This document shows, one piece after another, positions 39,036 to 64,000 of a DNA stretch of 64,000 nucleotides (the stretch's first letter is position 1; each line of letters opens with the position of its first letter). This stretch comes from an uncultured Erysipelotrichaceae bacterium (lineage in GTDB: Bacteria; Bacillota_I; Bacilli_A; RF39; UBA660), in the NCBI GenBank assembly GCA_902801795.1, contig CADCJQ010000010.1, forward strand, positions 2,358 to 66,357, in the 5' to 3' direction. The notes under the pieces are model-generated. The model did not search any database and was not told the origin of the DNA. It saw nothing but the letters and a program-made list of their open reading frames with translations. A program made the position numbers and the translations under genes.

Positions 39036-39109
39036 GGCTTAAACTCCTTTCTTTGTATAACATTTAAAGCCTAACATTATACTACAATTAATATAGGCTC
39101 AAGACAAGT

Positions 39110-39205: not shown

Positions 39206-39263
39206 ATTTCACCTCTTAAAAAATTTTATGATTATCCTTTTCATTTTATTTCAATCCTCCTCT

Positions 39264-39746
39264 TTAATTAAAATCTTTTAGTACATTATTTAGTTCTTGC
39301 TGTTCTTCGCGAGTTGGTATTTCTTTCTTTAAAATCTTTCCATTCCAATATTCATTACCCAAATCATCTTTATAATACTTATTATTTATATTACTTTTAT
39401 TATTATATTTAAACTTAGGTTGAATACTGGTATTATAGTTTTCTTTAATACTATTTAAACTTTTAATTAATACTTGTGAAATTCTTATAATTCGTTTATA
39501 ACTATTATTATTTTCCATATGGTTTTCTAAATTAATATAACTTAAAGAGGCTAAATGATTAATACTTTTAGATATTGTTTGTTTGCTATATCCATAAATA
39601 TTCATAAAATACTTATTAGTAGCCCAACAATATCCGGCTTTTTTGCACAATGAAATAATGTTCACCAATAATAACTTTTCTAAAGATGATATTCTTCTAT
39701 CACTTAATACTGATATTGGTATAAGCGGTTTTATATATTTTTCCAT
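39264..39746 (-). CDS. HTH replication-initiator-like protein (phage replisome-organizer N-domain)
   Basis: EKLLLVNIISL...GYCWATNKYF...SKQTISKSINHLASLSYI. Confidence 0.75.
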   Translation of the reverse strand: MEKYIKPLIPISVLSDRRISSLEKLLLVNIISLCKKAGYCWATNKYFMNIYGYSKQTISKSINHLASLSYINLENHMENNNSYKRIIRISQVLIKSLNSIKENYNTSIQPKFKYNNKSNINNKYYKDDLGNEYWNGKILKKEIPTREEQQELNNVLKDFN

Positions 39747-39988
39747 AGCATTCCAGTTATAAGGTAAATATATAAAATATATCTTTATAAAAGTGCACTT
39801 TTACTTTTCCCTAGGTATTATCATCTTATATCAAGTGTGCAAAAAAATTAAATGTGCAAATTTCAAAATTACTCTCATTTTTGTACTCCCACTAGTATAA
39901 AAAGTATTACATGGTGTCATAGAGTATCATATAGTGTTATAAAATATTATTAAATTTTCCGAAAAAAATTAAAAATTTTTTATTTTTT

Positions 39989-40096
39989 TTAATTTTTAGT
40001 AAAAAAGAGCATAAATATACACTCTTCATTATAATTATCTAAAAATGGTTCATAATGTTTCTTGTATTCATACTCACTTTTGTCATCTCTAATCAT
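39989..40096 (-). CDS. Possible 35-aa ORF (MIRDDKSEYEYKKHYEPFLDNYNEECIFMLFFTKN)
   Basis: GGAG RBS, hand translation. Confidence 0.35.
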   Translation of the reverse strand: MIRDDKSEYEYKKHYEPFLDNYNEECIFMLFFTKN

Positions 40097-40192
40097 AAAT
40101 AACTCCATAAATATAATCTAATTTAGTAATGTAACTTTTTTTCACAACATCCTCTCATCTATATATTAGGCTTTAAATGTTATATATTTTTT

Positions 40193-40225
40193 AGTTACAT
40201 TTTGACCAATGCCACCGCCGGCATT
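40193..40225 (-). repeat. attL junction of integrated element
   Basis: Minus strand AATGCCGGC-GG-TGGC-ATTG-GTCAAAATGT; core GGTGGC at 40211..40216. Confidence 0.88.
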
Positions 40226-40477
40226 AATGTGATTAGATAAGACTATTACATTAGGATCAGTTCCAAGACTTCGCATGGTATTTAATCTTTCATTTCTAGT
40301 TAATGTTTTATCTGTATCACGAGTAATAGTTACTGGTACACCTAATTCTTTAAAACGATTGTACATGTAATTAGCGGCTTGCAAAGTAAAGTCTTTTTCT
40401 CTTAAATTACCTGATACTGCTCCAGGGTCATTTCCTCCATGACCTGCATCAACTACTATTCGATATTTATCATTCAT
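40211..40477 (-). CDS. 5' part of interrupted N-acetylmuramoyl-L-alanine amidase
   Basis: MNDKYRIVVDAGHGGNDPGA...LREKDFTL...SNHINAGGG; 89 codons up to the att core. Confidence 0.92.
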
Positions 40478-40523
40478 AATTATTTTCACCCATAATAGTT
40501 TATGTAATGAAAATAAATTGTTG

Positions 40524-40549
40524 AAAAAAAGATGGTAAAAACCATCTTT
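40524..40549 (-). terminator. Terminator between fibre operon and amidase gene
   Basis: AAAGATGGT-TTTT-ACCATCTTT plus T tract. Confidence 0.8.
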
Positions 40550-40562
40550 ATTATAAATATTT

Positions 40563-41783
40563 CTATGGATTATTTGAACCAGGTTCATCAACTTCAAATC
40601 CTAAATTAAATATTATTGTTCCACCAGATGCTTTATTTTCACAATCAACATCTTGTCCTTCAATCCACATATATATTCTTAATTTAGTAACACCAGGTTT
40701 TAAAGTTAATAATTCAGTATGAGTTCCACTTTGAGCAGTATCATTGTCTGATGCAATTAATTTATTAATAGTTACAGCATCAAATAATGATGAATAGTTA
40801 GCAGCAGTAGCATCTCCCCACTTAACACCAGTTTGTTCACTTGTTACATAATCAGTAGCAGTAGCAGCAATAGCAGATTTAACTCCAGAATATGCTAATG
40901 CAGGTTGATAAGTTACATTTGATGAAGTAGCAGTATTATAATCTGCTGTTGTGGTATAAGTAGTAATACCATAAACGTTACTTGCATGATTTACACCAGT
41001 AGCAGTATGAACATCATAATTTGGTTCAATAAATATTGCAGATGTACCATCATCTAATGCTTGCATTGTAGCAGTTGTAGAACTTGAAGCCGTATTTCCT
41101 TCATCGATAATAGCAATACGAGATGCATATTCAATATCAGTATCAGTACCACTATTTACTGTATAACCTTTAACACTTGTATTTTTTGTTAAATACAAAG
41201 TAGTATTTTCACTAAAATCTGATTTAATAAATACATCAAACGCTAAATAGTTACCAGAGTTACCATCATGATCACTTTCTGCAGTCGAAGTTAAAATATA
41301 GTTACCTAAAGCATTATTTGTAACTGTACCAAGGAACATATTTAATCCTTTTAAACTCTTAGTCGTTGTACCATCATTTTTATAACCATTAACAGCAGCT
41401 ACAGTATTAACTGTTGACACTGGGTTAAGAATAGTTCCTTGATTAACTCTTGTAGGAACTTGGTTAACAGCATCAGCATATGTTGTGTGAGCTGCTAATA
41501 ATTCAGAAGATGTTACAAGTGATTTCCAATTGATAGCATCAGTTGAAATTTGAATACCTGATCCACTAGCAACAGTAACATCCAAATCTGTTACAGATAC
41601 AACATAGTTTGCCGTAAACCATGCATAAACTGATGTGCTTAACAATACAACTGTTAATAATAGAAATAGAAGTAATACTAAACTCTTTCTTCCTTTCTTA
41701 TCACGATGCATTAAAACATACCAAAATCCTTTTTTCTTTTTCCTATTTTCTTTAGTTTTCTTTACTAAAGTTTCTTCATTCAT
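40563..41783 (-). CDS. TasA/camelysin-like secreted subunit with SipW-type signal
   Basis: Basic N-terminus, TM helix, SVYAWF; paralog of 55813..56811 (shared ISTDAxxWKS and WLEGQDVD.ENxAS blocks). Confidence 0.72.
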   Translation of the reverse strand: MNEETLVKKTKENRKKKKGFWYVLMHRDKKGRKSLVLLLFLLLTVVLLSTSVYAWFTANYVVSVTDLDVTVASGSGIQISTDAINWKSLVTSSELLAAHTTYADAVNQVPTRVNQGTILNPVSTVNTVAAVNGYKNDGTTTKSLKGLNMFLGTVTNNALGNYILTSTAESDHDGNSGNYLAFDVFIKSDFSENTTLYLTKNTSVKGYTVNSGTDTDIEYASRIAIIDEGNTASSSTTATMQALDDGTSAIFIEPNYDVHTATGVNHASNVYGITTYTTTADYNTATSSNVTYQPALAYSGVKSAIAATATDYVTSEQTGVKWGDATAANYSSLFDAVTINKLIASDNDTAQSGTHTELLTLKPGVTKLRIYMWIEGQDVDCENKASGGTIIFNLGFEVDEPGSNNP

Positions 41784-41991
41784 ATTTTCCTCCCTTATTC
41801 TAAATTACAAAATAATATTATCATACTTTTTTTTCAAATTCAATACATTTTATCAAAAAATTTCATTTTATGTCAAAAAAAAGATAATCAAGTTTCACAA
41901 AGATTATCTTCTAAAAATAGAATATCCTATTACTATTAACAAAGCACTAAATATTATATATATTTTTTTATAAAATACAATTATATTTATC

Positions 41992-42573
41992 TTAATCTGT
42001 TGACAAAATTTGTTGTGAATTTATCTTTATTTCAATCATTTCAAACAAATCTTGATAATCAGAATTATTATAACCAGTAGGAAAAGTAATTAACAAAACA
42101 TAATTATTTGTTTTATTAATATCAAAACTAAAATATTCCGTTGGAGTCTCAATCATCCTAAAAAAAGTACCATCATCATCAGTAATTACTTGGTTTGAAG
42201 TTATTATACTAGTATTATTATTAACCGTTTCCCCTTTAAATAAATCATATGTTATTGGAATATTAGTTGTCGTCCTAATAGATAAATCATATTTAAGATT
42301 TGTCTCTGTTCTTCTTTCTTCATTATAATTACTAACTGAAAAATAATATAAATACTGATTATTACTTGGAATAATTTTGGGTAAACTAATAGTTTGAGAA
42401 ATTACCGTATCCTCTAATACATAAATAGCATGTGGAATGATAATATCACCATTCTTTTCTGTCTCAAATCTTGAAAAAGTTGATGGCATAACATACAATA
42501 ATACAACAAGAATAATTAATAAAAAAGTAATTTTATTAAATTTGATAATTTTTTTTATATTAAACAAAGACAT
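41992..42573 (-). CDS. Secreted fibre-subunit-like protein
   Basis: TM helix followed by STFSRF motif; beta-rich body. Confidence 0.6.
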   Translation of the reverse strand: MSLFNIKKIIKFNKITFLLIILVVLLYVMPSTFSRFETEKNGDIIIPHAIYVLEDTVISQTISLPKIIPSNNQYLYYFSVSNYNEERRTETNLKYDLSIRTTTNIPITYDLFKGETVNNNTSIITSNQVITDDDGTFFRMIETPTEYFSFDINKTNNYVLLITFPTGYNNSDYQDLFEMIEIKINSQQILSTD

Positions 42574-42622
42574 AATATCACCTATTTTTTTAATTTTCTT
42601 ATTTTAATTATTTGAGTTGCAT

Positions 42623-43408
42623 CTAAGACTTTTTGGTTTTATTTTTTTCAGTCACCTTTTTTATTTCATTTATATCAATTATTTGAGTTGCATCTAAGAC
42701 CTTTTTGGGTTTATTTTTTTCAGTTGCCTTTTTTATTTCACTTATATCAATTATTTGAGTTGCCTCTAAAACTTTTTTCTTATTTATTTTTTCTACTTCA
42801 TTTTTAACTATTGGTTTTTCATCATTTTTTACGATATCATCTTGTTTATTAGTATCTTCTTTTATTACTTTAACTTTTTCTTTTTTGTTTTTTGATTCTT
42901 TAATAATTTTTTCTTTATTACCATTATAAGAAAATAAAAGACTTAAACAAAACAATGTAACAAAAATTAAAACAATTACCTTAGGAGATAGTAATACTTG
43001 TTTAATTGCACTAACATTAGGAATAATTTTAGTAACTTTTCCAAGAACCAAACTCTTATCTATAGGATTATCATTTGTATTATTATTATCACCCTTAGTA
43101 ATAATATAATCATCATTTTTTTCAACAACACGGTGTGTAACAAAATCATTACCAGAAATATATGTTACCACATCACCTTCGTTATAATCACTATTTATTT
43201 TAACAATTACAACATCGCCTTCATTAATGTAATCTTTCATACTACCTGTTGCTACTTGAAAATAAGAATAACCAAAAATATTAACATATTTATTTTGTAA
43301 TATTTTCAAACTAAAAAAACTATACAAACAAAAAAGAATAATAAGAATAATAATAAATATTAAAACATTAATTATCATATCAACGATTTTATGAGATCTT
43401 TTTAACAT
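42623..43408 (-). CDS. Signal peptidase I, SipW/ER-type (S26)
   Basis: TGSM catalytic Ser, VTHRVV, ITKGDNNNTND; C-terminal 24-aa repeat. Confidence 0.92.
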   Translation of the reverse strand: MLKRSHKIVDMIINVLIFIIILIILFCLYSFFSLKILQNKYVNIFGYSYFQVATGSMKDYINEGDVVIVKINSDYNEGDVVTYISGNDFVTHRVVEKNDDYIITKGDNNNTNDNPIDKSLVLGKVTKIIPNVSAIKQVLLSPKVIVLIFVTLFCLSLLFSYNGNKEKIIKESKNKKEKVKVIKEDTNKQDDIVKNDEKPIVKNEVEKINKKKVLEATQIIDISEIKKATEKNKPKKVLDATQIIDINEIKKVTEKNKTKKS

Positions 43409-43444
43409 TTTATCACCTCTTTTTATTCTTTTATTCTTTTATTC

Positions 43445-44029
43445 TTATGTATACTCTACAATAGTTTCCCCTAAATATTGACTAAAATTTATTATAACCG
43501 GTATAGTTACACTAGTATCATCATCCAACCCATACAAAGAATCAACTTGATTGTTCTCTTCATTATTTACCCATTCGATATATACTCTTATATGATGTAT
43601 ACTACTATTACTAATAGGAATTACACCAGTATAAGTTGCTTCATCTGTCATAATAATGTTATTATTATTTAATTCTTCAATATTAGTAATCAGGATACTA
43701 TCATTATTTAATAATGATAAATCAAGACTAATATCATATCTAACAGAAACAGAAGTATTATTAGGATCAATGTCAATATCAAAATATGCTCCAACACCAG
43801 GAGCAATTAATCCTTCTTTAACATTTGAATCTGTTGAAACAGCATAATTATCAACAACAAAATGAACACTATCATTAATATTGCTATTATTAACTTTTAC
43901 TTGCCACTTGGCAATATCATTACTAACTGTTATACTATTATTTGTCTCAAATAAGCCATAAGTACTACTTATTTCTAAAATTGTTATACACAATAACAAC
44001 AACACGACAAAAAACAACATTTTTCGCAT
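43445..44029 (-). CDS. Secreted fibre-subunit-like protein
   Basis: STYGLF after TM helix; IAKWQVKVN, IAPG, VRVYIEW blocks shared with 57807..58415. Confidence 0.68.
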   Translation of the reverse strand: MRKMLFFVVLLLLCITILEISSTYGLFETNNSITVSNDIAKWQVKVNNSNINDSVHFVVDNYAVSTDSNVKEGLIAPGVGAYFDIDIDPNNTSVSVRYDISLDLSLLNNDSILITNIEELNNNNIIMTDEATYTGVIPISNSSIHHIRVYIEWVNNEENNQVDSLYGLDDDTSVTIPVIINFSQYLGETIVEYT

Positions 44030-44032
44030 ATA

Positions 44033-44581
44033 TTACTCTTCTCTAACTTCTTTAAGAGTTTTCTTAAATTCTTTAACAATTACATAAGCCTCATACATAA
44101 ATACAATAAAGAATGGTAAAATTACTAAAAACAAAAATCCCCATTTTGATGTCATAGTTTTTAAAATACTTCCCACAAAAGCAATCTTATTGCTACCATT
44201 TACTTTACCAATTAAATACTCACTAGAAAAAGCCTTATCTTCATTCTCATCGTTTTTATAAGAAAAAGTGTGTTCTTTTTCATTAATATATTTATTATCA
44301 GTTATATTCGCTAATGTTACTGTATTCTTATTAAAAGCTGTATCATAAAATAACACAGGATCCCCTTTATTAATACTATTTAAATCAGGATATTTTGCAA
44401 TAACCAAATCTCCTTTTTTGTAATAATCCAATACATCATTTTCCATAACTACAAGAGATGTATTACCAAATTCTACAACACCATCATCATTTGTTTTTAG
44501 CAAACAAAATGTTGCAAAAGCACAAATAACTAAATACGCAAATAAAATTGTTTTAAAAATACTTCCTATTACCTTCATCAT
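44033..44581 (-). CDS. Degenerate S26 signal-peptidase-like membrane protein
   Basis: Same layout (TM, KGDLVI, IGKV, TM) but no GSM or THR catalytic motifs. Confidence 0.6.
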   Translation of the reverse strand: MMKVIGSIFKTILFAYLVICAFATFCLLKTNDDGVVEFGNTSLVVMENDVLDYYKKGDLVIAKYPDLNSINKGDPVLFYDTAFNKNTVTLANITDNKYINEKEHTFSYKNDENEDKAFSSEYLIGKVNGSNKIAFVGSILKTMTSKWGFLFLVILPFFIVFMYEAYVIVKEFKKTLKEVREE

Positions 44582-44626
44582 AATCACCATTAAAAGTATA
44601 ACATAAGATAAAATCTTATGCAATAA

Positions 44627-46204
44627 CTATTTTCCTTCTAAAATATCCTTTGCTTTTAATATAAAATTTATATCATCAAAATTAATATTAATATCATTCA
44701 TATAATAATAATATACAATATTATCAATAACTTTAATAAAATTATCAATATTTCCTTCTTCCAAATAATCTAAATTAATATTGAATCCTAATAATGTATA
44801 TTTATCAACAACAATTGAATTTAATTTTTCTAAATCACTATATATATCATTATTAATTAATGTAACATATGGACTATAAATTAATTTATTAATTTCTTCA
44901 ATAATATCATCAGTATTAATTTCTATTTGATGCTTATCTGACATTCTTTTTAAGAATAAATAACTACTAACACCAAGTTCTAAATATAATGACAAACTAC
45001 TATTCTCATTAATACTATTATATATTCGATCTTTTATGATATCCAAATCGTATTCATTATACAAATTCAATAAATCATTTAATAAAACATCAGATTTAAT
45101 AAAAAATTCACTACAATCACTATCACTATTTTTACTCAATATTTTTAAAGCCTTTGAATTATTTTTCTTAATTTCATTTGTTATTTTATCAATATCTTTA
45201 AATTTATTTTTCAAAATATTTTTATAATCATTTTTATTATTATATAATTCATGACATTCATCTATTAAATATCTATACTTACTAATTATTTGATATTCCA
45301 TAAGAGAATATCTTAAATTTATAAACATTCCTTTTTTATCATCAACAATAGAACTTTCAGTATAATCATTAATAATTTTATCTATCTTACTAGGATCAAA
45401 GTCTTTTATATCAAACTCCTTATTAAGAAATAGATCATAATACCTTTTCTTAGACTTATTTATTAAATTATCATAACTAATTACTTTACTTTGATATTCA
45501 TTTTTATATCTATCAAATGAATCATCCACATGTTTATTTAAAAATTTAAATAATCCTTTATTATTTTTATTTTCACTATATTTAGAAAATTTAATTTCCT
45601 TTTGTTTATTTATATAATTATCAAAATATTTACTATTTTTAAAGTATAAATCATAAAAATTGACAACAATATATTTTAATATATTAGGACACTTCCAATA
45701 TATTTTTTCAAAAAATCCATGAATTTTATCAACATTTTTTTCATTTAATAAAAAATCTATATATTGACTTGCATAAAAATTTAAATAAAAGGATTTTCCA
45801 TTAACAGGAGTTCCTACATTTTTAAATATTTCAATAATTTTTAAAATATTTTCATTAATAATATCAAGATTTTCATTTTCATAAGAATTAATAACATATA
45901 TCATTTTATCTAGTCCTAATATTTCCATCGGAGATTTAAACCTATTAAAATAACAAAAATCACTTAATAACATCTTACCATCATCTATTATTTTTTCTTC
46001 TTTTATATCGCATATATTATTATATCTATTTTTTATTTCTTCCAAAACATTTTGATAAATTGACTGATATTCAACAATTAAAGAAGATACTTTCTCATAA
46101 TATATTTTACGATTTTTTAAATTATTTTGTGGTAACACACCTAAAATTTCTTTATCATTTTGTATTTTGGTTTTTACATCATCTAACATTTTATTCACCA
46201 TCAT
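44627..46204 (-). CDS. Hypothetical protein
   Basis: 525-aa Lys/Asn-rich ORF within the operon; no motif recognised. Confidence 0.7.
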   Translation of the reverse strand: MMVNKMLDDVKTKIQNDKEILGVLPQNNLKNRKIYYEKVSSLIVEYQSIYQNVLEEIKNRYNNICDIKEEKIIDDGKMLLSDFCYFNRFKSPMEILGLDKMIYVINSYENENLDIINENILKIIEIFKNVGTPVNGKSFYLNFYASQYIDFLLNEKNVDKIHGFFEKIYWKCPNILKYIVVNFYDLYFKNSKYFDNYINKQKEIKFSKYSENKNNKGLFKFLNKHVDDSFDRYKNEYQSKVISYDNLINKSKKRYYDLFLNKEFDIKDFDPSKIDKIINDYTESSIVDDKKGMFINLRYSLMEYQIISKYRYLIDECHELYNNKNDYKNILKNKFKDIDKITNEIKKNNSKALKILSKNSDSDCSEFFIKSDVLLNDLLNLYNEYDLDIIKDRIYNSINENSSLSLYLELGVSSYLFLKRMSDKHQIEINTDDIIEEINKLIYSPYVTLINNDIYSDLEKLNSIVVDKYTLLGFNINLDYLEEGNIDNFIKVIDNIVYYYYMNDININFDDINFILKAKDILEGK

Positions 46205-46295
46205 GAAAACTTTCTTGATCTTTTGTTAAAACTTTTATGTAATCATCAACTAATTTATATATTTCTATTAAATCACTATTAGAAATTTCATTCAT
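46191..46295 (-). CDS. 34-aa ORF (MNEISNSDLIEIYKLVDDYIKVLTKDQESFHDGE)
   Basis: GGAAGGTG RBS; overlaps the start of the next gene. Confidence 0.55.
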   Translation of the reverse strand: MNEISNSDLIEIYKLVDDYIKVLTKDQESFHDGE

Positions 46296-46395
46296 GTTTT
46301 CACCTTCCATATTTTTTTATCAACAAAATTTAATTATCTACAAACCAAATTATATCATAAAATAATAAAAAATACACTATATTTAAGTGTATTTT

Positions 46396-49300
46396 TTACT
46401 TAATAACAAAATATTTATAAATATTTCCTACATTAACATCGCCATCATACAGATATATAACTAACTTATATGTTCCGGTTATCAAATTATCTTTTAAAAT
46501 ATATTGATTATTGACATTTGATCCTGGATTAGTAAAGAATTTATATACATTTTCATCACTAGTATTATTAAATGTTCCTTCTAAATAATCTTTAATATCA
46601 ACAAGTTCATATGATAAATCGTAAACATTATTATAAGTTCTTCTAAATAAAGCGATTCGAAGATTTGGATTAACTAAACTAGATGAATATAATATATTAA
46701 AATTAAACTGATTATTGTCATTTAAATTATGACTTGTTTCATGATCAATAATTAAATATTCATCATCTAGTACAATATCTAAACCATAATTTTTTTCCAT
46801 TATTCTAAAAGAAACATCGCATTCATCCGAAGAATCAATTCCATAGTATATACCATCTGGCGAATAGAATGATTCTACCTTAAGGGTATAATTGCCACCC
46901 GATAAATTACCATCAGTTGTATCAATAATAATCGAAGAATAAACATTAGCAACTTTTTCAGCTAAATTAATTCTTACTGTTCCATCACTTCTTGGATAAT
47001 GAGTTATTCCATTATATATAAAGGATACTCCCATAAGGTCTATTCCATTAACTTGATTATTATTTTCATCAAATATTGTTAATTTAATACCCAATTTATT
47101 ATCATAATAAGTTGTATCAAGAATATTATTGTTACTATTATCTTTTTCAAGTTCAAATGATGTTGTAACTCTTAAAGTTGTATCATTTCCAACATGAATA
47201 ACATTATCACTTAGAGTAGCAGAAACATCAATAACACCATCAGAATCATAATATAAATCATATTTCATACTATCATGTTGTGTACCTAAAACAGAATAAA
47301 TAGTTTGTTCGGTAGATGTACGTATTTCCATAAGTAATGATGTTTCAAGATAATTACTAGCGATTTCAGCATCACAAAAATCAACAATAAAGATAAATTC
47401 TTCCACAGCCATTTTATTAGTTTGATTATAATAAATATTTTTCAGTGTTTCTTCATCATATGTATTATTAACACTAGAACTTCCCATTTTAATAAATTTA
47501 CTTAAATCATACGAGTAAGTTAAATATAAATTATAATTATTAATAATATCTATATTATCATTAGCATTTGTTATGTAATAATAATACTCTGGACTAGAAC
47601 CACTAGCAAAATCTATCATAGTAATTTTAGTATTAACTGGTAATAACTTATCTGATACTAAAGAATGATGATATCCATTACGATATATACTTGTATCAGA
47701 ATTAACATACAAAGCATAATAAGCACTTAAACTACTTTTTGAAGTAATTCTGGTTGGGCTTGATGAGAAAAATTCATATTGCCTTCCTGGAGTCATCGCT
47801 GCTTCATAAAAATCACCTTGATATATCGCTCTTGATAAATTAACCACTATATCAATACGAGTTGTTTCTTTTTCCAAATCATTAATAGGTGTTATCGCAA
47901 GTAATTTAATTGTAACATAACCTAAATTTCCATTAGTAGCCAAATTCTTAGAATGATATAAGTAAAACAATAAACTAGGAGCCATTGAGGAGTTTTCCGT
48001 ATAATATGTCGTTGTACCAGATATATTATTATCACTTTCAGTTAAAAATTCAGTTGATCCTAAAGTAATCCATCCTTCTGTACCAGGTCTAATTGATAAT
48101 CCAAGTCTATTATCAGCATCATCTGAATTATTGGCAATTCTTGGAATACTATTAGGAGCTACCAACGAAACATCACTATCAAGATTTTCATATTGAAATC
48201 CTACAACAGTAAAATATGTATTAGCCGTTGTATAGTCAATTAATGGAAGTTCATATGTTCCCAAAGTAGAATATTTTGATGCAACAAGATCAACTTCATA
48301 TGACGTAACAGATGTACCAATTATCCACATATAATAACTTGAATCTTCTGGTGTAGGAACAATATATTTAACTTTTAAAGTATTTCCTTCACCTTCTTCA
48401 TCAGAAACAAAATTTGAATAGAACCCATCAACTTCAATATTATGATTATCTTCATGTAATCCTAAAACATAAGTTCCACCAGAAAAATAATATATATCAT
48501 TATTATTAGCCGTATCACCATAATTATAATCAGTATCATACATGGCAACAACAATTTCCCCAGTTCTTTCTTTCTTATACATTCCCAAGAAAGTCATACC
48601 ATCAACTTCACCATATGAAGTAATGTTTTGATTAGTAGCAATATTTAATATTTTATCTTCAAGCATATAAATACGATTATTAACGTTCTTTGTTACTGTT
48701 TCGTTATCCTCATCAATGGTAACTGTTGCTAATGTATTATTATCTTTCAAACTTCTGAATTTTTTCAACAAGTTAGCTCCATTTTGAAAATATAAAGTAC
48801 TATTATTAACTAGATCTAATTCATCAATACGACTTACACTAAATAAAACACTTGAATATTCATTAGTTCTATCCGTCGCTCCTGATAACTCTATATTAGA
48901 ATTATTTAATACAACTAAATCTGCTCTTTGAATAGATATATTCTCTTTAATATCACTCTCTGTTCCATAATTATTAATATATATTCTACTATAACCAGTA
49001 GTACTTGAAGCATTACCGCTTCCAAAGATGGAACCACCAATATCAAAATTATTATGTGTTGCTCCATCAATGTTGATTATAATACCTACTGTAACACTTA
49101 TAAATGAATAATCATAGTCTTCTGATCCACTAGCATTAGCTTCTCCACCACCAAAAACAGTTCCAGCAATATTAATATCAGATTTAACTAAATCATTAAT
49201 ATTTACTTCATTTCCTATATTAGCAACAACTGAATTATATCCTATATTAACCATTGTATCGCCATATAAAACTGAAGTATTAGCACCACCATAGACATTG

Positions 49301-55788: not shown

Positions 55789-55812
55789 TATTCATCCTCC
55801 TATATCTTTTTA

Positions 55813-56811
55813 TTATGGATTTAAGGTAAACTGTAAATTATATCTTATGTCACCAAAAGATGCATTATTTTCACTATCAACATCTTGTCCTTCTAACCAC
55901 ATATATATTTTTATTTTTGTAATACCTTTTTTTATATCAAATAGTTCTTTATTTTCATTATTTACACTTTTTGTATAAACCTTTACATTTACAGGTTTAA
56001 AATAATTTGGGTAATATGTACTATTAGCTTTTTTTATATTAATATTTTGAGAAAGCAATATTGGATTAATTAAACCATCATAAAGTATTATATCAGCATT
56101 CTCTTCTGTAGTTATGATATTAAATACAGATAAAGCATTGGATACACCACTTCTTGTATGAACATCATAATTAGGTTCCCAAATATAGACATCATCAATA
56201 CTTCCACCATTTAAATTTTGAACAGTATTAATATTAGTTTCTTTAGGAACATTTCCTTCAATAACAAAAGCAACTCGCGCGGAATTTTCAATACCAACAC
56301 TTTCTTCACCAAGATACGTTACAAAAGATTCGTTACTTAAATATAATTTTCTATCAACACTAGTTCGAACAAAGATATCAAAAGAAATAAAATTTCCTAG
56401 ACAATCTTCACCACTACATCTAGTTTCAACTTGTCTTTTGCTAGATAATATATATTCTCCACTATCAACATTTTCCAAGTTACCATAATACATATATAAA
56501 TAACCATTACCATCAGTTATACCTGCAGTTGACATTGGCATAAATTTAGATGGTACTTGATTAGTACATGTACTATATGTTCTATAAGCTTCAATAATAT
56601 CACTTACAGATAATACACTTTTCCAATCTAAAGCATCGGTAGATATTTCTATACCACCATCAGTTTCAACATGAACATCAACAAATTCTATATCAGTAAT
56701 TCTATTAGTAGAAAACCATGCATAAGTAGATGTACCTAAAAAAATCCCTACAACAAGAAACCATAACAATAAAAACCAAAATTTTCTTGTTCTCTTTTTA
56801 TCTTTTCTCAT
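55813..56811 (-). CDS. TasA/camelysin-like secreted subunit with SipW-type signal
   Basis: STYAWF after TM helix; paralog of 40563..41783. Confidence 0.72.
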   Translation of the reverse strand: MRKDKKRTRKFWFLLLWFLVVGIFLGTSTYAWFSTNRITDIEFVDVHVETDGGIEISTDALDWKSVLSVSDIIEAYRTYSTCTNQVPSKFMPMSTAGITDGNGYLYMYYGNLENVDSGEYILSSKRQVETRCSGEDCLGNFISFDIFVRTSVDRKLYLSNESFVTYLGEESVGIENSARVAFVIEGNVPKETNINTVQNLNGGSIDDVYIWEPNYDVHTRSGVSNALSVFNIITTEENADIILYDGLINPILLSQNINIKKANSTYYPNYFKPVNVKVYTKSVNNENKELFDIKKGITKIKIYMWLEGQDVDSENNASFGDIRYNLQFTLNP

Positions 56812-56819
56812 TATAGCAC

Positions 56820-57602
56820 CTAATCTTCCGTGACATTTAATTCAGTAGATACATCAGCATTAATAGTATCTTTACTATTTTCAATAAAATGTCTTGTTTC
56901 TTCATCAAAATGTTCATCAGTTATACTCATACTAATTTTTATTTCCCCACCAAGAAGTTTATCAACACATTCAGGATCATCACCTTCAAGCCAAATAACA
57001 ACCGTTATCTTATCAACCTCTCCTGGTTTTAATCTAGGTCTATTTTCTAAAACAGGAATATCATTTTTATAAAAGACTTTAGTACCTTTTTCTGCTTCTC
57101 CTGTTAATGGATTAGCCTTTGCATAAACTGTTTCGGTATCATTTAAAACAATCATAATTCTAATCGCTTCATCAACATTTTTTATAACATCTTCAATCAT
57201 AACTTTATACCAATAATCTTGAATTTCAGTACCTTGATTATCTACATAAAAAGTATAAGCAATATAATTATCACCATTATGACTACCACCAGTAAAATCT
57301 TTAATATTACTAGGCAGCCAATCAATAGAAATATTATCCATAAATTTAAGTTCTTCAGCATATAACTTTCTTACATGTTTATGAACTTCTTTTTCAGTAT
57401 AAATAGCAAGACCAGCCTCAAGTCTAAAATTAGGATCCAATGTAACAGTAAAACTACCTCCATTGTATGCAAGACTTAAAACAACAAATAAACTCATCAA
57501 AAAAATAATTAAAATAACAATTATTATGCGATATTTTTTAGCTCTTGCTTTTCTATTTTTTATTTTATCCGCTGTATAAACAACATACGCTTCTTTTGCC
57601 AT
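56820..57602 (-). CDS. Membrane-anchored camelysin-like protein
   Basis: N-terminal TM helix; C-terminal VVIWLEGDDPECVDKLLGG resembles the subunit C-termini. Confidence 0.65.
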   Translation of the reverse strand: MAKEAYVVYTADKIKNRKARAKKYRIIIVILIIFLMSLFVVLSLAYNGGSFTVTLDPNFRLEAGLAIYTEKEVHKHVRKLYAEELKFMDNISIDWLPSNIKDFTGGSHNGDNYIAYTFYVDNQGTEIQDYWYKVMIEDVIKNVDEAIRIMIVLNDTETVYAKANPLTGEAEKGTKVFYKNDIPVLENRPRLKPGEVDKITVVIWLEGDDPECVDKLLGGEIKISMSITDEHFDEETRHFIENSKDTINADVSTELNVTED

Positions 57603-57806
57603 AACCTACTCCATACTATATATAGTTTATCATACATGACCTTTTCTTTCAAGAACAAAAGACAAAAATAATAAAAAGACAAAAAAATAAAAAACTCTTA
57701 AAAATGCTAAAAATATCAAAATACAATATTATACGTTTCATTTTACATTATTTTACACAAAGATTTTACAATATTTAACTTTTACTATTTACATTAATAA
57801 TTATAT

Positions 57807-58415
57807 ATGGTATTCTACAATCAGGAGGAGAATATGAGATACAATAGAAAAATAATACTTTTAATGCTATGTGTTTCAATATTATTATGTATTCTAACAA
57901 TGCAAGAAACATATGCTAAATATTCAACCTCTAATAACGCAACAAGTAATATGTCAATCGCAAGATGGCGAATTCTTGTTAATAACTTTGACATTAGAAA
58001 TGATTTATCAGCATCAACAGTTATTCAACCAGTATTTAGTGGAAATAACAATATTAGTGATGGATATATCGCTCCAACCGCTAATGGTTATTTTGATATT
58101 TTAATTGATGCAACAGAAACTGATGTATCATTTAATTACCAAATATCTCTTAATCAAAACTCAGATAATGAAGTTATTGATTTAGCAATTACAGGTTATT
58201 CAATAAATAATGGAGCAACCCAAACATATAATAACAATATTACTGGTTCTATAAATAAAAATGATGTAAATAAAACAATGCAAATTCGTGTGTTTGTAAC
58301 ATGGAATGATGGTGAAGGCTCTGTGATGAACAATCAAGATGATACCAACACAACAGGCGAAAACGCTACTGCAAAATTAGATGTTAATTTAAATTTCATT
58401 CAACAATCTAACTAA
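57807..58415 (+). CDS. Secreted fibre-subunit-like protein (opposite strand)
   Basis: AGGAGG RBS; ETYAKY after TM helix; IARWRILVN, IAPTANGYF. Confidence 0.72.
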   Translation: MVFYNQEENMRYNRKIILLMLCVSILLCILTMQETYAKYSTSNNATSNMSIARWRILVNNFDIRNDLSASTVIQPVFSGNNNISDGYIAPTANGYFDILIDATETDVSFNYQISLNQNSDNEVIDLAITGYSINNGATQTYNNNITGSINKNDVNKTMQIRVFVTWNDGEGSVMNNQDDTNTTGENATAKLDVNLNFIQQSN

Positions 58416-58442
58416 AAAAATAAGTTCAAAACGAACTTATTT

Positions 58443-59057
58443 TTAATTTGCTTGATCAATATGAATTGTTAAGTTAATAGAAATACTTGGAGAATTGGGA
58501 TGAGTATGATTATAGGTATAAGCATTTTCTCCCCACAAAGTATCTACACTATCTAGATTTTCCTCAAAATTCCAAATTACATCAACAGAAAAAGTTGAAG
58601 ATGAAAAAGGTACAAGAATTGTATTATTTACACCTATTAATACTTTAAAAGGGAAATCATTTTCTAACATATCTAAAATATCATCACTAGAATTATTAGC
58701 ATCTACTGTATATGTAGTATCAAGAATTCTTACAGAATTCATTTCAAAACTTACAACAGCATTAGTATCACCATTATTCGTAATAACAACTTCATCATGA
58801 TAATTAGTCATTCCAGGATAAATATCATTAATATCAAATGTTAAAGATTGAGTAACATCCTCTTCATTTTGCAAAAAAGTAATATTCCACGCTCTAACTT
58901 TGGCTCCCATTTCAGTATCAACATGATTTGAAAATACAAACCACGCATAAGTATTAAAAGAAAGAAGAACAATAAGAATAAACAATGTCTTTAATCCTAA
59001 AGTTTTTCTTAATCTATTTAATACAATCTTTATTTCTTTTTTTTTCACATATATCAA
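58443..59057 (-). CDS. Secreted fibre-subunit-like protein
   Basis: NTYAWF; IYPG and ITNNGD camelysin-like motifs. Confidence 0.7.
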   Translation of the reverse strand: MIYVKKKEIKIVLNRLRKTLGLKTLFILIVLLSFNTYAWFVFSNHVDTEMGAKVRAWNITFLQNEEDVTQSLTFDINDIYPGMTNYHDEVVITNNGDTNAVVSFEMNSVRILDTTYTVDANNSSDDILDMLENDFPFKVLIGVNNTILVPFSSSTFSVDVIWNFEENLDSVDTLWGENAYTYNHTHPNSPSISINLTIHIDQAN

Positions 59058-59626
59058 CTCTCACTTTTTTCTTTATCAATTTCATTTTTTATACTAATAA
59101 CTTCATAAAAAACAAAAATAATAAAAGGAACAAAAATAACAAAGAAGAAACCATAAGTATTATTAATAATATGACTTACAATACTTAGTAATTTTAACTT
59201 AAAAGCATATTTACCAAGAATTTGATTACTATTAATTTCTTTATCCTCTATTTGATTAGCATCACCTTTTGTTATAAAATATAAACCATTATCTCTTTTT
59301 TCTTTTTTTATTATTCTATGGGTAACAATTTTCCCTGAAAAACTACCTTCTGTACCATTATATACAACAATATCACCAATATTCAAACTTTCAGGATCAA
59401 CCTTTTTGGATAATATCATATCTTTAACTTTTAATGTAGGATCCATACTTCCAGTAACAACAGTATAAACTCCATATCCACCTAAATTTATACTATTAGA
59501 AGATACTTTTTGTACAACAATAACTAAAAGCAAACAAAAAACAATTACTGTAGCTATATACTTTAATATTTTCATTGAAATTCTCAACGCCTTATTATTC
59601 TCCACTTTTTCTATCAAATTCTTCAT
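59054..59626 (-). CDS. Signal peptidase I, SipW/ER-type (S26)
   Basis: TGSMDP, VTHRII, ITKGDAN; start after GGAGG. Confidence 0.93.
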   Translation of the reverse strand: MKNLIEKVENNKALRISMKILKYIATVIVFCLLLVIVVQKVSSNSINLGGYGVYTVVTGSMDPTLKVKDMILSKKVDPESLNIGDIVVYNGTEGSFSGKIVTHRIIKKEKRDNGLYFITKGDANQIEDKEINSNQILGKYAFKLKLLSIVSHIINNTYGFFFVIFVPFIIFVFYEVISIKNEIDKEKSES

Positions 59627-60770
59627 CTTTATCCTCCAAATTATCATCTATTTTTAAATGAATAATTTTATTCATATATTTATTAATTGCATTATGAAAT
59701 AATTCTTTAATCTTATTATCACTTGCAACATATTTATTTTTAATTACAACAAATTGTTTAGCAACAATTTCACTTAATTGTTCTTCTGATATTTGATTAT
59801 CAATATCAATTATTTTTTCAACAATATTACCAACAAGTCTTTCTTTTATTTCCTCTTTAGAAACAGATGAATCTTTAAATTTATTTTCATCCAAAGTATT
59901 AAGAACTAAATAATCAAGTAGAAAACTTTCATCATAATATTGTTTTAACTTACTATTATCATAATAATCTTTATTTTCTTTATCCTCTTTATTCGTTTCA
60001 TCACTAAAATGTTCTTGTAAATAATTCCATAACTTTACTGCATATTGAAAATTAACATTCTTTAAAATTACATTAGTCTTTTTAATGGGAGATGTTACTA
60101 AAGCAATATGTAATTTATGAATCATCTTATATACTTCAGTACTTTTAAGATCTCTTATTCGCATTTCCACTTTACTAATTCTATCCTCAATACTTTGACC
60201 ATCTTCCATTATATTATTGGTCGTATCAATTAAACTATCAATCGAAAAGTTCATTTTAACATTTTCTCTACCAATTTTTGAAACAGCATTATATTCCACT
60301 TTTTTTATACATTTATTTTTATTCGCAGATACAATTTTTTGTTTTTTACGACTAATAAATAATGTTAAATTTTCAATTAAACTATATATAAAACGATTTT
60401 CATAGGTATTAAAACTTTCCTCTTTATTAATGTTTAATATTTTTGAAGGCTTAACATCACCTGTTTTACGATCATAATCTTGAATTAAATTAGTATTTCT
60501 TGATAAATGCTTAATACTATCAACTGTTATTCTTCTTGCAAGTTCAATTTTAACAACATCTTCGTCATTGATAATAAAACGATTAGGATTTCTTAAAATA
60601 TTATCTATATACACAATTGTATCTTCAATAATATCTAACCATTCATAATTAGCATTTACTCGGTCAATATTAAGTCCTACATGAACTTTAGAATCAACGT
60701 TATTTGAAAATTTATTTATGATAGAGCTATCAGTTTTATTATATAAATCAATAATATTTTCATCTTGCAT
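59595..60770 (-). CDS. DUF2357-like (McrC-associated) protein
   Basis: PSKILN...FNTYENRFIYSL motif typical of DUF2357. Confidence 0.75.
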   Translation of the reverse strand: MQDENIIDLYNKTDSSIINKFSNNVDSKVHVGLNIDRVNANYEWLDIIEDTIVYIDNILRNPNRFIINDEDVVKIELARRITVDSIKHLSRNTNLIQDYDRKTGDVKPSKILNINKEESFNTYENRFIYSLIENLTLFISRKKQKIVSANKNKCIKKVEYNAVSKIGRENVKMNFSIDSLIDTTNNIMEDGQSIEDRISKVEMRIRDLKSTEVYKMIHKLHIALVTSPIKKTNVILKNVNFQYAVKLWNYLQEHFSDETNKEDKENKDYYDNSKLKQYYDESFLLDYLVLNTLDENKFKDSSVSKEEIKERLVGNIVEKIIDIDNQISEEQLSEIVAKQFVVIKNKYVASDNKIKELFHNAINKYMNKIIHLKIDDNLEDKDEEFDRKSGE

Positions 60771-60785
60771 AAATACTACCTCCTA

Positions 60786-62306
60786 TTATGATAATTTCTT
60801 AAGTCTTAAAACATACTCCTCACATTCCTTCATTTTACCTTTACCAAATGTTTTATCTAAAAATTCGACAAATCCATCTATTTCATCACGAATATAAGAA
60901 ACATTTAATTGTTCAAATTTACGAAGAATTTTTCGAGCAATAAAATAATCAACACCATCTATTTCTTCCCCACCACATGCAACATATATTGGCACAAATT
61001 TTTTCATGTGCATAACAATACGGTTACCAAAAGCAATACGGAAATGTTGAATAACATAATTATCCATTTCCTCAATCTTATCAAGCATCTCTTTTGTCAT
61101 AGGATGTTCTTGCATACCTTTTTGAAACAATGAATCCAAATATGAATAATTAATATCTTGTGCTTCCGTATCAATAGGCTCAAATACTTCACCTTTATCA
61201 TTAATATCAATTGGCATCGCACGGTCATAAACTTTATCAGTAACCATAAAAGTTGAGTCATCGTTATTAATTGTACCAATATACCACATATTAGGTGGTA
61301 TTTTAAGTTTTCCATCCATTAATTTTTTAGGATCATTAGGCCAAGAACTAGATACAAGTTCTACAATCCATTCATCCTTATTAGGCATTTCAAGAATAGA
61401 TAACATTTCCGCAAAATAATATTCAACTCTGGAAATATTCATCTCATCTAGAATAACGGTATAAACATCATCCGTATAACCTGCTAGATACATTTCTTTT
61501 AAAACTTCTGTTTCATTAAACTTTTTAGTAAACTCATTAAAATATCCAAATAACTCAGTACGATCTCTCCATGATGGTTGAACAGAAGCAACACAAGAAT
61601 CATGTTTTAAAAATTTTCCCCAAGCATAAGCAAGAGATGTTTTACCAGTACCAGATATACCTTGTAAAATAACAAGTTTAGTACTAGCCAAAGATGAAAT
61701 AAATAATCTTATCATTTCTGTTTTATAATAAAGTCTTAATTTTGAAGCAGCAAAATTACGAAATAATTCCACTAATTCTTCCAAAGTAAAAGAATTATTA
61801 TAATTTTGTACTTTATAACCGGCCATTAATTCATCAATATTATTAAGTTTTGCAAAACGAATACCATCAGCATTTTGATTTTCATTACTTTCACTAGTAT
61901 CAACAGTAGCATCTTCATCAGGTTTAAGTCCAAGTTGAGATACTTTCATCGCTAATATATCTTGTTTTTCTTTCATTAGTACTTGAATATCTTTATTAAG
62001 GGTAGCAATTTCTTCTAACATTGATTCTTGCTCTACCAAGGTTTTTCTAAAACGAATATATTTTCTAATTAAATAAAAGATTAAAAATCCAATTGATCCC
62101 AGTAATATTAAAAGTATTAAAACAGCAATGACAACAAAAATCCATTCACTACCATTAAAATCATCATGATAAAAAGAAACAATTTCTGCATAATCAGAAA
62201 CATTAAAGATTTCAATTATCCCAGAATAAAAACCTTTAATTATTGTCCAAAATCCGCCAAAAAACTGTCTTAAAAATTCAAATAAAAATCGAAAAAACGT
62301 CTGCAT
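60786..62306 (-). CDS. Membrane-anchored McrB-like AAA+ NTPase
   Basis: N-terminal TM helix plus coiled coil; GISGTGKTS, LDEMNISRVEYYF, GTINNDDS, DRA. Confidence 0.85.
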   Translation of the reverse strand: MQTFFRFLFEFLRQFFGGFWTIIKGFYSGIIEIFNVSDYAEIVSFYHDDFNGSEWIFVVIAVLILLILLGSIGFLIFYLIRKYIRFRKTLVEQESMLEEIATLNKDIQVLMKEKQDILAMKVSQLGLKPDEDATVDTSESNENQNADGIRFAKLNNIDELMAGYKVQNYNNSFTLEELVELFRNFAASKLRLYYKTEMIRLFISSLASTKLVILQGISGTGKTSLAYAWGKFLKHDSCVASVQPSWRDRTELFGYFNEFTKKFNETEVLKEMYLAGYTDDVYTVILDEMNISRVEYYFAEMLSILEMPNKDEWIVELVSSSWPNDPKKLMDGKLKIPPNMWYIGTINNDDSTFMVTDKVYDRAMPIDINDKGEVFEPIDTEAQDINYSYLDSLFQKGMQEHPMTKEMLDKIEEMDNYVIQHFRIAFGNRIVMHMKKFVPIYVACGGEEIDGVDYFIARKILRKFEQLNVSYIRDEIDGFVEFLDKTFGKGKMKECEEYVLRLKKLS

Positions 62307-62308
62307 AA

Positions 62309-63298
62309 CTATACTCCAATCAATTCAGATATTATAACATTGTCTATATTTTTTAACTTTGATATTTTGGATATTTTTCCATTCAAAATAATAAATTCAA
62401 AAACTTCTAATAACTGAATATTTCCACTAAAATCATCATTTATAATGACTGCAAATTTATACCCATTCCTGATATATTCATAAACAACATCTTTATTATT
62501 CATAAAATCATCATATAATATTTCCATTATAACTCTATCTTTTAAAAGATCTAAATCAATTATTTTAAATAATTGATTACATTTATTTTTTTTAGATAAC
62601 AAATTTACATCAAATGTAACAATATATTTTTGATAATATACAAAATTATTAATATCTTCTAAAATTTTAATACTTATTAAAGTATACAAAACCAATAATT
62701 TATCTTCATTTACTGTACCACTTTCATATACTTTCTTTACAGCTGTAGCACTAAATAATTCTGGTATTTTAATATTACTAACAAGTTTAGTATAAAAAGC
62801 ATTTTTAATATTAGTTGTTTTTATATCTAATTCAAAATCTTTACATGAACATTTTTTTATAAATTTCTCTTTTGTTTTTTGATTATCTTTAATTATAGGA
62901 AACAAAAGAATTTTTAAGGCATCTGGCTTTTCATTTCTTTTATTTACTTTATCCTCTAATTTTAACAATAATTTTAATATTCTTTTATCATTTAAGGCTT
63001 TCTCAAAACAAAGAATATATTTTAAAATCCATAAACAATTATTTATTTCTTCTTTAATATTATCCGTTTTATAATTTTCTTCATCTATATAGTCGTAAGT
63101 TGCTTTTTTTACACCATTCATAATATTATTTATAATGTTTTTTCCTTCACCATTGTAACCATATCTTAAATCAACATAAGAACTAACCATTACATTAGAA
63201 ATATCTTTTGATGTTTTACCATTAAAAATCAATTTAAAATAACCAAGAATATTTTTTCGATCATATTCTATATAATCCTTAACAATATTACGACTCAT
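62309..63298 (-). CDS. Hypothetical protein with possible degenerate EAL-like C-terminal domain
   Basis: RVIMEI...GYKFAVIINDDF...FEFIIL echoes EAL domain strands. Confidence 0.5.
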   Translation of the reverse strand: MSRNIVKDYIEYDRKNILGYFKLIFNGKTSKDISNVMVSSYVDLRYGYNGEGKNIINNIMNGVKKATYDYIDEENYKTDNIKEEINNCLWILKYILCFEKALNDKRILKLLLKLEDKVNKRNEKPDALKILLFPIIKDNQKTKEKFIKKCSCKDFELDIKTTNIKNAFYTKLVSNIKIPELFSATAVKKVYESGTVNEDKLLVLYTLISIKILEDINNFVYYQKYIVTFDVNLLSKKNKCNQLFKIIDLDLLKDRVIMEILYDDFMNNKDVVYEYIRNGYKFAVIINDDFSGNIQLLEVFEFIILNGKISKISKLKNIDNVIISELIGV

Positions 63299-63312
63299 AT
63301 TTACTTCCTTTC

Positions 63313-64000
63313 TTAAGATGCTGTAAAACTAATTATAGGTGTATTTGTACCATAAGGATACGTATAATTCATACTGGCATCTTTTTTATAAAATCTTATC
63401 ATTTCACTCGATATTGGATCAACCTTAAAAGTTATGCTATTAACATACTGATATCCATCAATTTCTACTTCTGTATGAGATATAGCATCTTGGTAAAATT
63501 CACTAGTTAAATCCAAAAGTACAACATTTGGATTAAAAGATAAAGTTATTAAGGCTGATGCATAATTTGCTTTCTCAGCATCTGACAAATTTCGATATGC
63601 AGAACTTGAAATTTCCTCTCCAACAGAGTGATTTCCATATGCCCTAATTACCTTGTAAAAATCAAAAGTATTAGTAAGAGAAAAATTCAAATAAGGCCTA
63701 TTCTCTTCATCCATTATTTCATATGACAAACCAGGAATCCCAACATTTAATTGAATTCTACCACTTATCGTTTGTACATATGGACTAACCGAAGAAGAAG
63801 TAACATTTAACCATACAGAATCACCCTCTTGTAATGCAACAACAGGATGTATATTTATTGTAAAATAATCACGATTAGTTCTTGAATCAATAACCCCATT
63901 ATTTTTACTTGCCGTACAAGAAACATTACTAGAGCATGTATAACTTAAATTATATGAAATATCACTTTTAGATACGACAAGATTATTTTTTATACTATTC
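63313..64000 (-). CDS. C-terminal part of a large beta-rich protein (runs off window end)
   Basis: The frame of ORF 63313..63729 stays open to 63999 (NSIKNNLVVSKSD...GIPGLSYEIM...). Confidence 0.8.
   Translation of the reverse strand, partial: NSIKNNLVVSKSDISYNLSYTCSSNVSCTASKNNGVIDSRTNRDYFTINIHPVVALQEGDSVWLNVTSSSVSPYVQTISGRIQLNVGIPGLSYEIMDEENRPYLNFSLTNTFDFYKVIRAYGNHSVGEEISSSAYRNLSDAEKANYASALITLSFNPNVVLLDLTSEFYQDAISHTEVEIDGYQYVNSITFKVDPISSEMIRFYKKDASMNYTYPYGTNTPIISFTAS

Follow-up and report, generated by a model that had tools for sequence, protein, structure and literature searches.

What does a gut bacterium with a small genome build with some 25 kb of contiguous genes, i.e. about 1.7% of its 1.5 Mb, and why should a relative of the GTPase of a restriction enzyme be encoded among them? 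The question is raised by the last part of a 64,000-nucleotide stretch of DNA (the window; positions 2358-66357 of contig C10, CADCJQ010000010.1) from an uncultured RF39-type member of the Bacilli, with a genome of 1.51 Mb in 81 contigs and 26% G+C. From 40.5 kb to the end of the window we find 17 genes, 16 open reading frames (ORFs) of at least 190 aa and one of 39 aa (s39). They are labelled A to P in window order (Table 1); a further gene, Q, and the 5' part of P lie outside the window. A sequence-only reading of this DNA had taken the locus for an expanded version of the SipW/TasA fibre loci of Bacillus. It is indeed much larger than the Bacillus tapA-sipW-tasA operon, but its complexity appears to reflect something else: a system of the CoCoPALM type, organised around a membrane-bound McrBC-like GTPase pair, N and M. 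Our analysis suggests that the locus encodes a dedicated system for the export, processing and assembly of a structure on the cell surface, probably a fibre or stalk that carries the giant protein G, and we put the probability of this at about 60%. RF39-type Bacilli are common, uncultured gut members with small genomes, and the operon bears on how they may attach to their hosts, to food particles and to partner cells.

A membrane-anchored GTPase pair of probable CoCoPALM type

The protein N is predicted to consist of an amphipathic N-terminus, a transmembrane (TM) helix (residues 58-76), a charged helical linker that we read as a putative coiled coil, and a GTPase domain. Since the TM helix is followed by strongly basic residues, the C-terminal domain should be cytoplasmic. 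A profile of the N orthologs matches E. coli McrB (6ut6, 7vsr, 6hz4) with an E-value of 2.5e-4; the match covers Walker A and Walker B as well as the N..D signature. Matches below threshold were obtained with AAA_5 in 12 of 23 N orthologs and with FtsL in seven of the 23 (best E 0.03). The residues N347-N348-D349-D350 are invariant in the N orthologs; they can be read as NxD followed by D or as NxxD, and HMMER aligns this NNDD without gaps to the NTAD of E. coli McrB. The partner protein M has PF09823 (DUF2357/McrC-N, E 6e-12) as its sole Pfam domain. DUF2357 is the N-terminal domain of McrC, which activates the McrB ring. The invariant columns of M hold no D...(D/E)xK nuclease pattern. Profile searches against the PDB sequences gave no match with D/J, A/H, M, O or F; N alone matched, to McrB. 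N thus aligns with McrB over its GTPase domain and M carries the McrC N-terminal domain, but in contrast to E. coli McrBC no DNA-binding domain and no PD-(D/E)xK nuclease are seen in the pair, N is anchored in the membrane, and the context is that of a secretion operon.

Such a pair is covered by a class that Bell et al. (eLife 2024; PMC11090510) named CoCoPALM in one paragraph, deferring the analysis to a later paper; in the literature that we searched, no later paper on the class was found. The traits given are an McrB-like GTPase with a signature shortened to NxD and often followed by D or E, the fusion of this GTPase to an FtsB-like N-terminus made up of a TM helix and a coiled coil, a DUF2357/McrC-N partner that commonly lacks a nuclease, and an association with genes of the signal peptidase family (PMC11090510). 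The locus studied here has the McrB-like AAA+ GTPase (N), the DUF2357 partner (M) and the association with signal peptidases (L, E, Q). It shares with the class the partner with no detected nuclease, the signal peptidase linkage and the occurrence in Bacillota, and the TM helix with the putative coiled coil in the place of a DNA reader would fit the architecture of an FtsB-like fusion. By these features N, M and L fit the definition of CoCoPALM, and the locus would be a well-preserved RF39 member of it. The present analysis adds to the published description an RF39 operon of 15 genes with a giant adhesin and two conserved dead peptidases, the H/I family, which lacks a structural neighbour, the D/J/K family, which is TasA-like, and the co-occurrence of N with the subunit genes when these are unlinked.

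The neighbours of the CoCoPALM GTPases in their clade, the CoCoNuTs, are predicted defence systems (PMC11090510), and the locus might accordingly be seen as a CoCoNuT-like conflict or defence system in which the secreted proteins act as sensors or decoys for phages and the GTPase pair transmits or executes the response. Membership of N in the McrB family agrees with this, as do the patchy distribution within the order and the lectin-like, variable domains of the adhesin, which could bind phages or competitors. We consider it very unlikely: the searches of the 17 proteins revealed neither a nuclease nor another effector domain, a surface organelle accounts better for the size of the locus, the architecture of the adhesin and the presence of the peptidases, and Bell et al. 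set CoCoPALM apart as pilus-linked (PMC11090510).

The GTPase pair belongs to a conserved operon

Relatives of H, the main conserved secreted subunit, form at least 384 homolog clusters, which bear neither a name nor a Pfam domain, and are found in 530 species-representative genomes labelled as uncultured Bacilli, Tenericutes, Mollicutes or Clostridium sp. CAG:xxx. We compared the gene order in 82 loci fetched from this set. A core operon Q-P-O-N-M-L-K-(J)-I-H-G-s39-F-E-D emerged, the order of which is near-invariant: a Q/E-like dead peptidase comes first, a second one is often found together with a D-type gene at the far end, and J has the opposite orientation in nearly all loci. The gene I is present in all 82 loci, G lies beside H in 75, F directly follows G in 63, O is present in 51 and P in 49; in most loci with P, it is preceded by an E/Q-like gene. 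N and M hold a fixed position in those 55 loci that also contain the gene K next to them. Moreover, the start of L overlaps the end of M, which suggests that the two are translationally coupled. N is the best-conserved gene of the operon: across the order, the identity to the proteins of the window is 68-80% for N, about 55% for M, 53% for I, 50% for H, 47% for L, 45% for P and 35% for K, and about 30% for O and F. N was found in 93 and H in 76 of 301 sampled genomes of the order, and the two sets overlap almost completely. Finally, in genomes in which a J-I-H-G-F unit lies beside housekeeping genes instead of Q to K, an N ortholog was present elsewhere in ten out of ten cases. The proteins F, O and M are predicted to be cytoplasmic, as is the GTPase domain of N, and all are part of this one conserved operon; none of them had been recognised as operon members in the sequence-only reading, nor had it been noticed that the locus runs off the window.

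These data bear on a further alternative, namely that an unrelated defence pair of the McrBC type was inserted into an ordinary locus for a TasA/SipW biofilm matrix. Relatives of McrBC are normally restriction systems, a defence island adjoins the locus at 31.4-40.5 kb, and the best structural match of the small subunit D is TasA. Nevertheless, an insertion is hardly credible given the fixed position of N and M, the strong conservation and the TM anchor of N, the lack of a detected nuclease domain in M, the overlap of L with M, and the presence of N in all ten genomes with unlinked subunit genes; moreover, the locus has no Peptidase_M73 subunit, even though the genome has a genuine one elsewhere. 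On the grounds of position, conservation, L-M overlap and unlinked co-occurrence, N and M as a plain defence island were rejected.

Only the genes C, B and A are a local expansion, an accessory set. They are rare or absent in the other loci and hence a lineage-specific add-on: A is 34% identical to H (A2 profile, E 1.7e-111) and is seldom found downstream in other loci, and B has no ortholog in the 82 loci, its alignment to the D/J profile being limited to the signal/FET region. In the sample of the order, genomes without a close H homolog (G020, G031, G059, G065, G116 and others; genus g20) encode membrane-bound McrB-like GTPases of a second, more divergent clade, which match the N profile at E about 1e-200; some genomes have both clades.

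Active and dead signal peptidases

Four proteins of the locus are related to SipW. Two of them, C and L, match TIGR02228 (C, E 1.1e-20 and 74 bits; L, E 9.8e-28 and 97 bits; cut-off 51.85) and retain the GSM, HR and GD motifs with the Ser, His and Asp positions. By family match and motifs, they are SipW/archaeal-type signal peptidases, in agreement with the earlier assignment of two active Ser-His enzymes and a degenerate one, E. In E, SipW matches are below threshold and Ser and His are replaced. Q, which lies beyond the window, is likewise below the TIGR02228 cut-off and has lost Ser and His; both TM helices are retained. The Ser-His dyad is kept in all 55 L orthologs and in none of about 60 E/Q-type orthologs, be they upstream or downstream. 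The sequences thus indicate that the dead paralogs are conserved as dead. C differs from L by a cytoplasmic Lys/Glu-rich tail of about 100 aa (window 42623-42900) with a tandem 23-residue repeat (KKVLEATQIIDISEIKKATEKNK / KKVLDATQIIDINEIKKVTEKNK), which is missing in L. The whole genome encodes six peptidases of the SipW type that exceed the cut-off and a single one of the LepB type. The latter (TIGR02227, E 8e-45; C3:116230-116691) is encoded directly upstream of a gene for a surface protein of the FFNYTRTG type described below (C3:116818-118377).

A precedent for a dead peptidase in fibre assembly comes from Streptococcus pyogenes, in which SipA, a dead signal peptidase paralog, is required for pilus polymerisation (PMC4049620). 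The likeness to SipA/LepA lies in a conserved, catalytically dead signal peptidase paralog inside a surface-fibre operon; the difference is that SipA is LepB-like, i.e. of the bacterial type, and serves a sortase-dependent pilus, whereas E and Q are of the SipW/archaeal type and belong to an operon that has no sortase. By analogy to SipA, E and Q may act as chaperones or holders of signal-anchored subunits.

A positional signal that is shared far beyond the locus

The ORFs, coordinates and signal motifs of the earlier reading were confirmed. Six secreted proteins carry the motif [ST][YF][AGS]x[FY] directly after a single N-terminal hydrophobic helix, with the signal ends VYAWF (A), TFSRF (B), TYGLF (D), TYAWF (H), TYAKY (J) and TYAWF (K). 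In G orthologs, the N-terminal helix ends in T[YF][SG][DE]. The motif is a true positional signal: 45 of the 70 matches to [ST][YF][AGS][WLKRFY][FY] in the whole genome are located where an N-terminal TM helix ends, as compared to about 1.5 that would be expected. It is also widely used. About 40 surface proteins encoded throughout the genome, from 100 to more than 1,000 aa in length, have a near-identical N-terminus in which basic residues and a TM helix are followed by [ST][YF][AS]FFNYTRTGxxNTxxxGxIxF. They have the look of one class within the secretome, encoded all over the genome and characterised by a signal end of the SipW type together with a constant first strand, and this N-terminus may be a common docking or processing module. 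Examples are encoded in the window (4184-5563 and 20380-22434) and on the contigs C1, C3, C4, C5, C8, C19, C26 and others.

A second shared element, the C-terminal acidic block W[LI]EGxDxD[CS]xN, is common to A, H and I (shared C-terminal blocks as such had been noted before); the homology of I to H and A is confined to it. Judging from the motif, this block could bind Ca2+ as in cannulae, which is a guess. The earlier statement that the locus has neither a sortase nor LPXTG held as well: no [LIS]PxTG-type motif occurs in any of its proteins, and the four sortase genes of the genome are all on other contigs.

The small subunits D, J and K weakly resemble TasA

The genes D and J encode paralogs with an identity of 32%, and the homology of K to both spans its whole length (hhalign probability 94.7%, E 6e-8, 157 columns). 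In a model of D with a confidence score (pLDDT) of 77, Foldseek against the PDB places the TasA fibre 8aur first (E 2.4e-3, probability 0.99, TM-score 0.35/0.30), followed at ranks 8 and 11 by AbpA (7ueg) and CanA (9hdi), and CanA appears again at rank 44. TasA, AbpA and CanA together belong to the TasA superfamily, the predicted subunits of which have N-terminal donor strands of low confidence (PMC12518558). In the models of both D and H, the 12-18 residues after the signal helix have a pLDDT below 50, which is compatible with a donor strand and not diagnostic of it. On the basis of the D model and the homology of J and K, the D/J/K subunits appear weakly TasA-like, which agrees in part with the earlier proposal; the model of H shows no such likeness (see below).

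Sequence comparisons gave a different picture. The proposed search with hidden Markov models for camelysin/TasA turned up no subunit: with Pfam Peptidase_M73 (PF12389) and the NCBIfam TasA/SipW-cognate models, A, B, D, H, I, J and K gave no match at E-values up to 0.1. As a positive control, C48_2429 of the same genome matches PF12389 at 2.3e-7. Comparison by hhalign to a profile of genuine PF12389 proteins of the same lineage resulted in probabilities of 6% for D/J and 3% for K, and comparison of D/J and K to B. subtilis TasA (an approximate sequence, the result being a lead at most) was not significant. The D/J family has 2,932 representatives at 50% clustering; in a deep search with its profile, all of the 150 matches listed are close family members, with no bridge to TasA.

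The same genome provides two points of comparison. A canonical locus (C48:1291-5930) encodes a 215-aa protein of the camelysin/TasA family with a GGAIAYFTD signal, which is 81-98% identical to its 120 best database matches, an adjacent SipW-type peptidase and two more secreted proteins. A small locus (C55:2107-5013) encodes a third member of the D/J family (204 aa; E 7e-20 with the profile), a TM protein of 548 aa and an active-type SipW-type peptidase, with neither a GTPase nor a giant protein. Moreover, D/J-like domains form the N-terminal module of larger proteins with BspA-type leucine-rich repeats (440 aa) or ephrin-receptor-like repeats (660 aa), and they occur in a 3,424-aa protein that ends in an FGE-sulfatase-type domain (proteins P0211, P0228, P0231).

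How close, then, is the locus to the TasA/camelysin loci, i.e. B. subtilis tapA-sipW-tasA, B. cereus sipW-tasA-calY and C. perfringens sipW-bsaA? A dedicated SipW-type Ser-His peptidase, signal ends of the [ST][YFW]A type, the absence of a sortase signal and a predicted beta-sandwich subunit that best matches the TasA fibre are found in both. However, those loci comprise three to four genes as compared to at least 15 here, among them the genes for the GTPase pair, for three proteins of the cytoplasm and for one protein of about 3,000 aa; the main subunit H has another fold, and no subunit scores with PF12389 or with a profile of its members. The archaeal filaments AbpA/AbpX and CanA/CanX and the Sulfolobus 0406 thread are built from jelly-roll subunits with a disordered N-terminal donor strand and are often encoded beside a class I signal peptidase, and D matches AbpA and CanA. 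Again there are differences: the similarity is weak (TM-scores 0.18-0.41), and assembly in those systems takes place without a chaperone or NTPase.

The giant protein G and the subunit H

The 3,130-aa ORF of G, which had been pointed out as an adhesin, is intact, and G orthologs range from 2,300 to 3,280 aa. G has five lectin-like modules of the beta-trefoil type (with Fascin and RicinB matches below threshold), a solenoid of about 28 turns with 25-residue [YF]GG[GSN] repeats (residues 1445-2215) and a beta-rich C-terminal third, and it lacks a wall anchor. This predicted architecture is typical of adhesins. The model of H is confident (pLDDT 84, predicted template modelling score 0.83), and Foldseek against PDB and BFVD found no structural neighbour for it, TasA-like or other; the best match to a filament, the Sulfolobus 0406 thread 7pnb, has a probability of 0.38 and a TM-score of 0.18. 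Genes of the H family with a single in-frame stop occur in three genomes (G110:C34:11655-12623, G040:C7:34796-35764 and G256:C3:21342-22322), two of them, which belong to one genus, have TAA as the stop and the remaining one has TGA; they may be pseudogenes or cases of recoding.

These properties of G and H invite an explanation that does without a polymeric fibre. The locus could be an export and anchoring system for G, in which a base or sheath complex of fixed stoichiometry is made up of the small proteins, G is either anchored by its uncleaved N-terminal helix or released and held by H and I, and the GTPase pair assists in the translocation or folding of a chain of about 3,000 residues. 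The position of G next to H in 75 of the 82 loci, its N-terminal signal of the same kind as in the subunits with no other anchor, the fold of H that is not that of TasA, and a conservation of H and I above what is usual for exposed pilins all speak for this explanation. Moreover, an energy source is needless for donor-strand polymers and plausible for the export of a giant protein. We regard it as unlikely, though as the main rival of the fibre, since the presence of at least three TasA-like paralogs (D, J, K) and of dead peptidases is hard to explain by the export of G alone, and the D/J family is also found in the simple SipW locus on C55 that has no giant protein.

A proposed model for the assembly of a surface fibre or stalk

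We therefore return to the fibre or stalk that carries G. In the model that we propose, the Sec system would insert the subunits, and L, in this genome also C, would cleave just after the motif. The N-terminal segment thus freed may serve as the donor strand that joins subunits of the D/J/K and H/I types. The product would be a sortase-independent surface polymer that carries G or is capped by it. The dead paralogs E and Q could hold uncleaved or nascent subunits at the membrane, as a chaperone or an anchor. The complex of six N with M (N6-M) would be tethered under the membrane by the TM helix and the coiled coil and, with F, O and s39, may use GTP to gate or drive export or assembly.

Several observations weigh against this model. 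First, the filament is deduced here from genes and models of monomers. Second, since the fibres that the TasA superfamily forms by donor strands do without an NTPase, analogy to them leaves the role of N and M unexplained. Third, H, the likely main structural protein, resembles no solved structure in PDB and BFVD, and the likeness of D to TasA is a single weak Foldseek result (E 2.4e-3, TM-score 0.35) that no sequence or profile method supports. Fourth, as about 40 unrelated surface proteins use the signal motif, it is not a specific marker of fibre subunits. Finally, the presence of the system in only about 25-31% of the species of the order makes it accessory and patchy.

It is tempting to go one step further and to see in the membrane-tethered, nuclease-free McrB/McrC-N pair the engine of an unrecognised class of NTP-driven machines for surface filaments in single-membrane bacteria. 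The GTPase ring, coupled via the dead peptidase paralogs, would then control the extraction, ordering or retraction of subunits, among them the structurally new H family and the giant lectin adhesin; the logic would parallel that of type IV pili with every part of a different origin. We consider this idea possible and on the whole doubtful.

If the locus does encode a fibre, the organelle would depend on signal peptidases and not on sortase, and its energy-coupling module would stem from a restriction enzyme, a clear case of a defence motor that was recruited to the biogenesis of the cell surface. It would also open the CoCoPALM class to functional study for the first time. Structural work could start from two concrete targets, the conserved pseudo-peptidases and the H family, the confident model of which lacks a structural neighbour.

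Gene inventory and borders of the locus

Table 1. Genes and other features of the locus in window coordinates; functions and topologies are predicted.
Feature	Position	Strand	Description
A	40563..41783	-	406 aa; secreted paralog of H; TM helix and VYAWF; C-terminal WIEGQDVDCEN block
B	41992..42573	-	193 aa; small secreted protein; TM helix and TFSRFETE; lineage-specific
C	42623..43408	-	261 aa; second active-type SipW-type signal peptidase; lineage-specific
D	43445..44029	-	194 aa; TasA-like small subunit, D/J family; TYGLFET
E	44033..44623	-	196 aa; catalytically dead SipW paralog; both TM helices retained
F	44627..46204	-	525 aa; conserved helical cytoplasmic protein
s39	46191..46310	-	39-aa acidic helical small ORF between G and F
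G	46396..55788	-	3,130-aa giant surface protein; N-terminal TM helix and TFSE
H	55813..56811	-	332 aa; main conserved secreted subunit; TYAWFS and YMWLEGQDVDSEN block
I	56820..57602	-	260 aa; TM-anchored or secreted; C-terminal WLEGDDPEC block
Intergenic region	57603..57806	.	Divergent, between I (-) and J (+)
J	57807..58415	+	202 aa; TasA-like small subunit, D paralog; TYAKYST
K	58443..59057	-	204 aa; small subunit, D/J homolog; TYAWF
L	59054..59647	-	197 aa; core active-type SipW-type signal peptidase
M	59595..60770	-	391 aa; cytoplasmic McrC-N/DUF2357 protein
N	60786..62306	-	506 aa; membrane-anchored McrB-like AAA+ GTPase
O	62309..63298	-	329 aa; conserved cytoplasmic protein
P	63313..64000, cut by window end	-	309 aa overall; secreted or TM-anchored; TIARYVYN after TM helix
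Q	Upstream of P, beyond window end, same contig		167 aa; second dead SipW paralog; contig ends after it

All genes of the locus except J are on the minus strand, and the divergent intergenic region is the presumed promoter region both for J and for an I-H-G-F-E-D-C-B-A unit. Neither in the locus nor in seven related loci were Rfam elements, riboswitches included, detected. A single N-terminal membrane helix is predicted for A, B, D, G, H, I, J, K and P, two helices for the peptidases, and no TM helix for F, M and O. Searches of all 16 proteins against Pfam and NCBIfam recognised the peptidases and DUF2357 and gave weak signals for lectins and AAA, but nothing else. F has no match in Pfam or PDB, and the same is true for O, for which 23 orthologs were compared to Pfam. 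The possibility that O has a degenerate EAL fold found no support: hhalign of O to the EAL domains of related genomes gave a probability of 1.8%, with the expected register aligned. The genus has no canonical EAL gene. The small ORF s39 overlaps the start of F by 14 nucleotides, and acidic genes of 42 and 46 codons were called at the same spot in two of the related loci (L001, L002).

On the side of A, the locus is bordered (window 37452-40597) by a gene for a large serine recombinase and by a truncated gene of the Amidase_3 type, the latter at 40166-40597 and overlapping the end of A.

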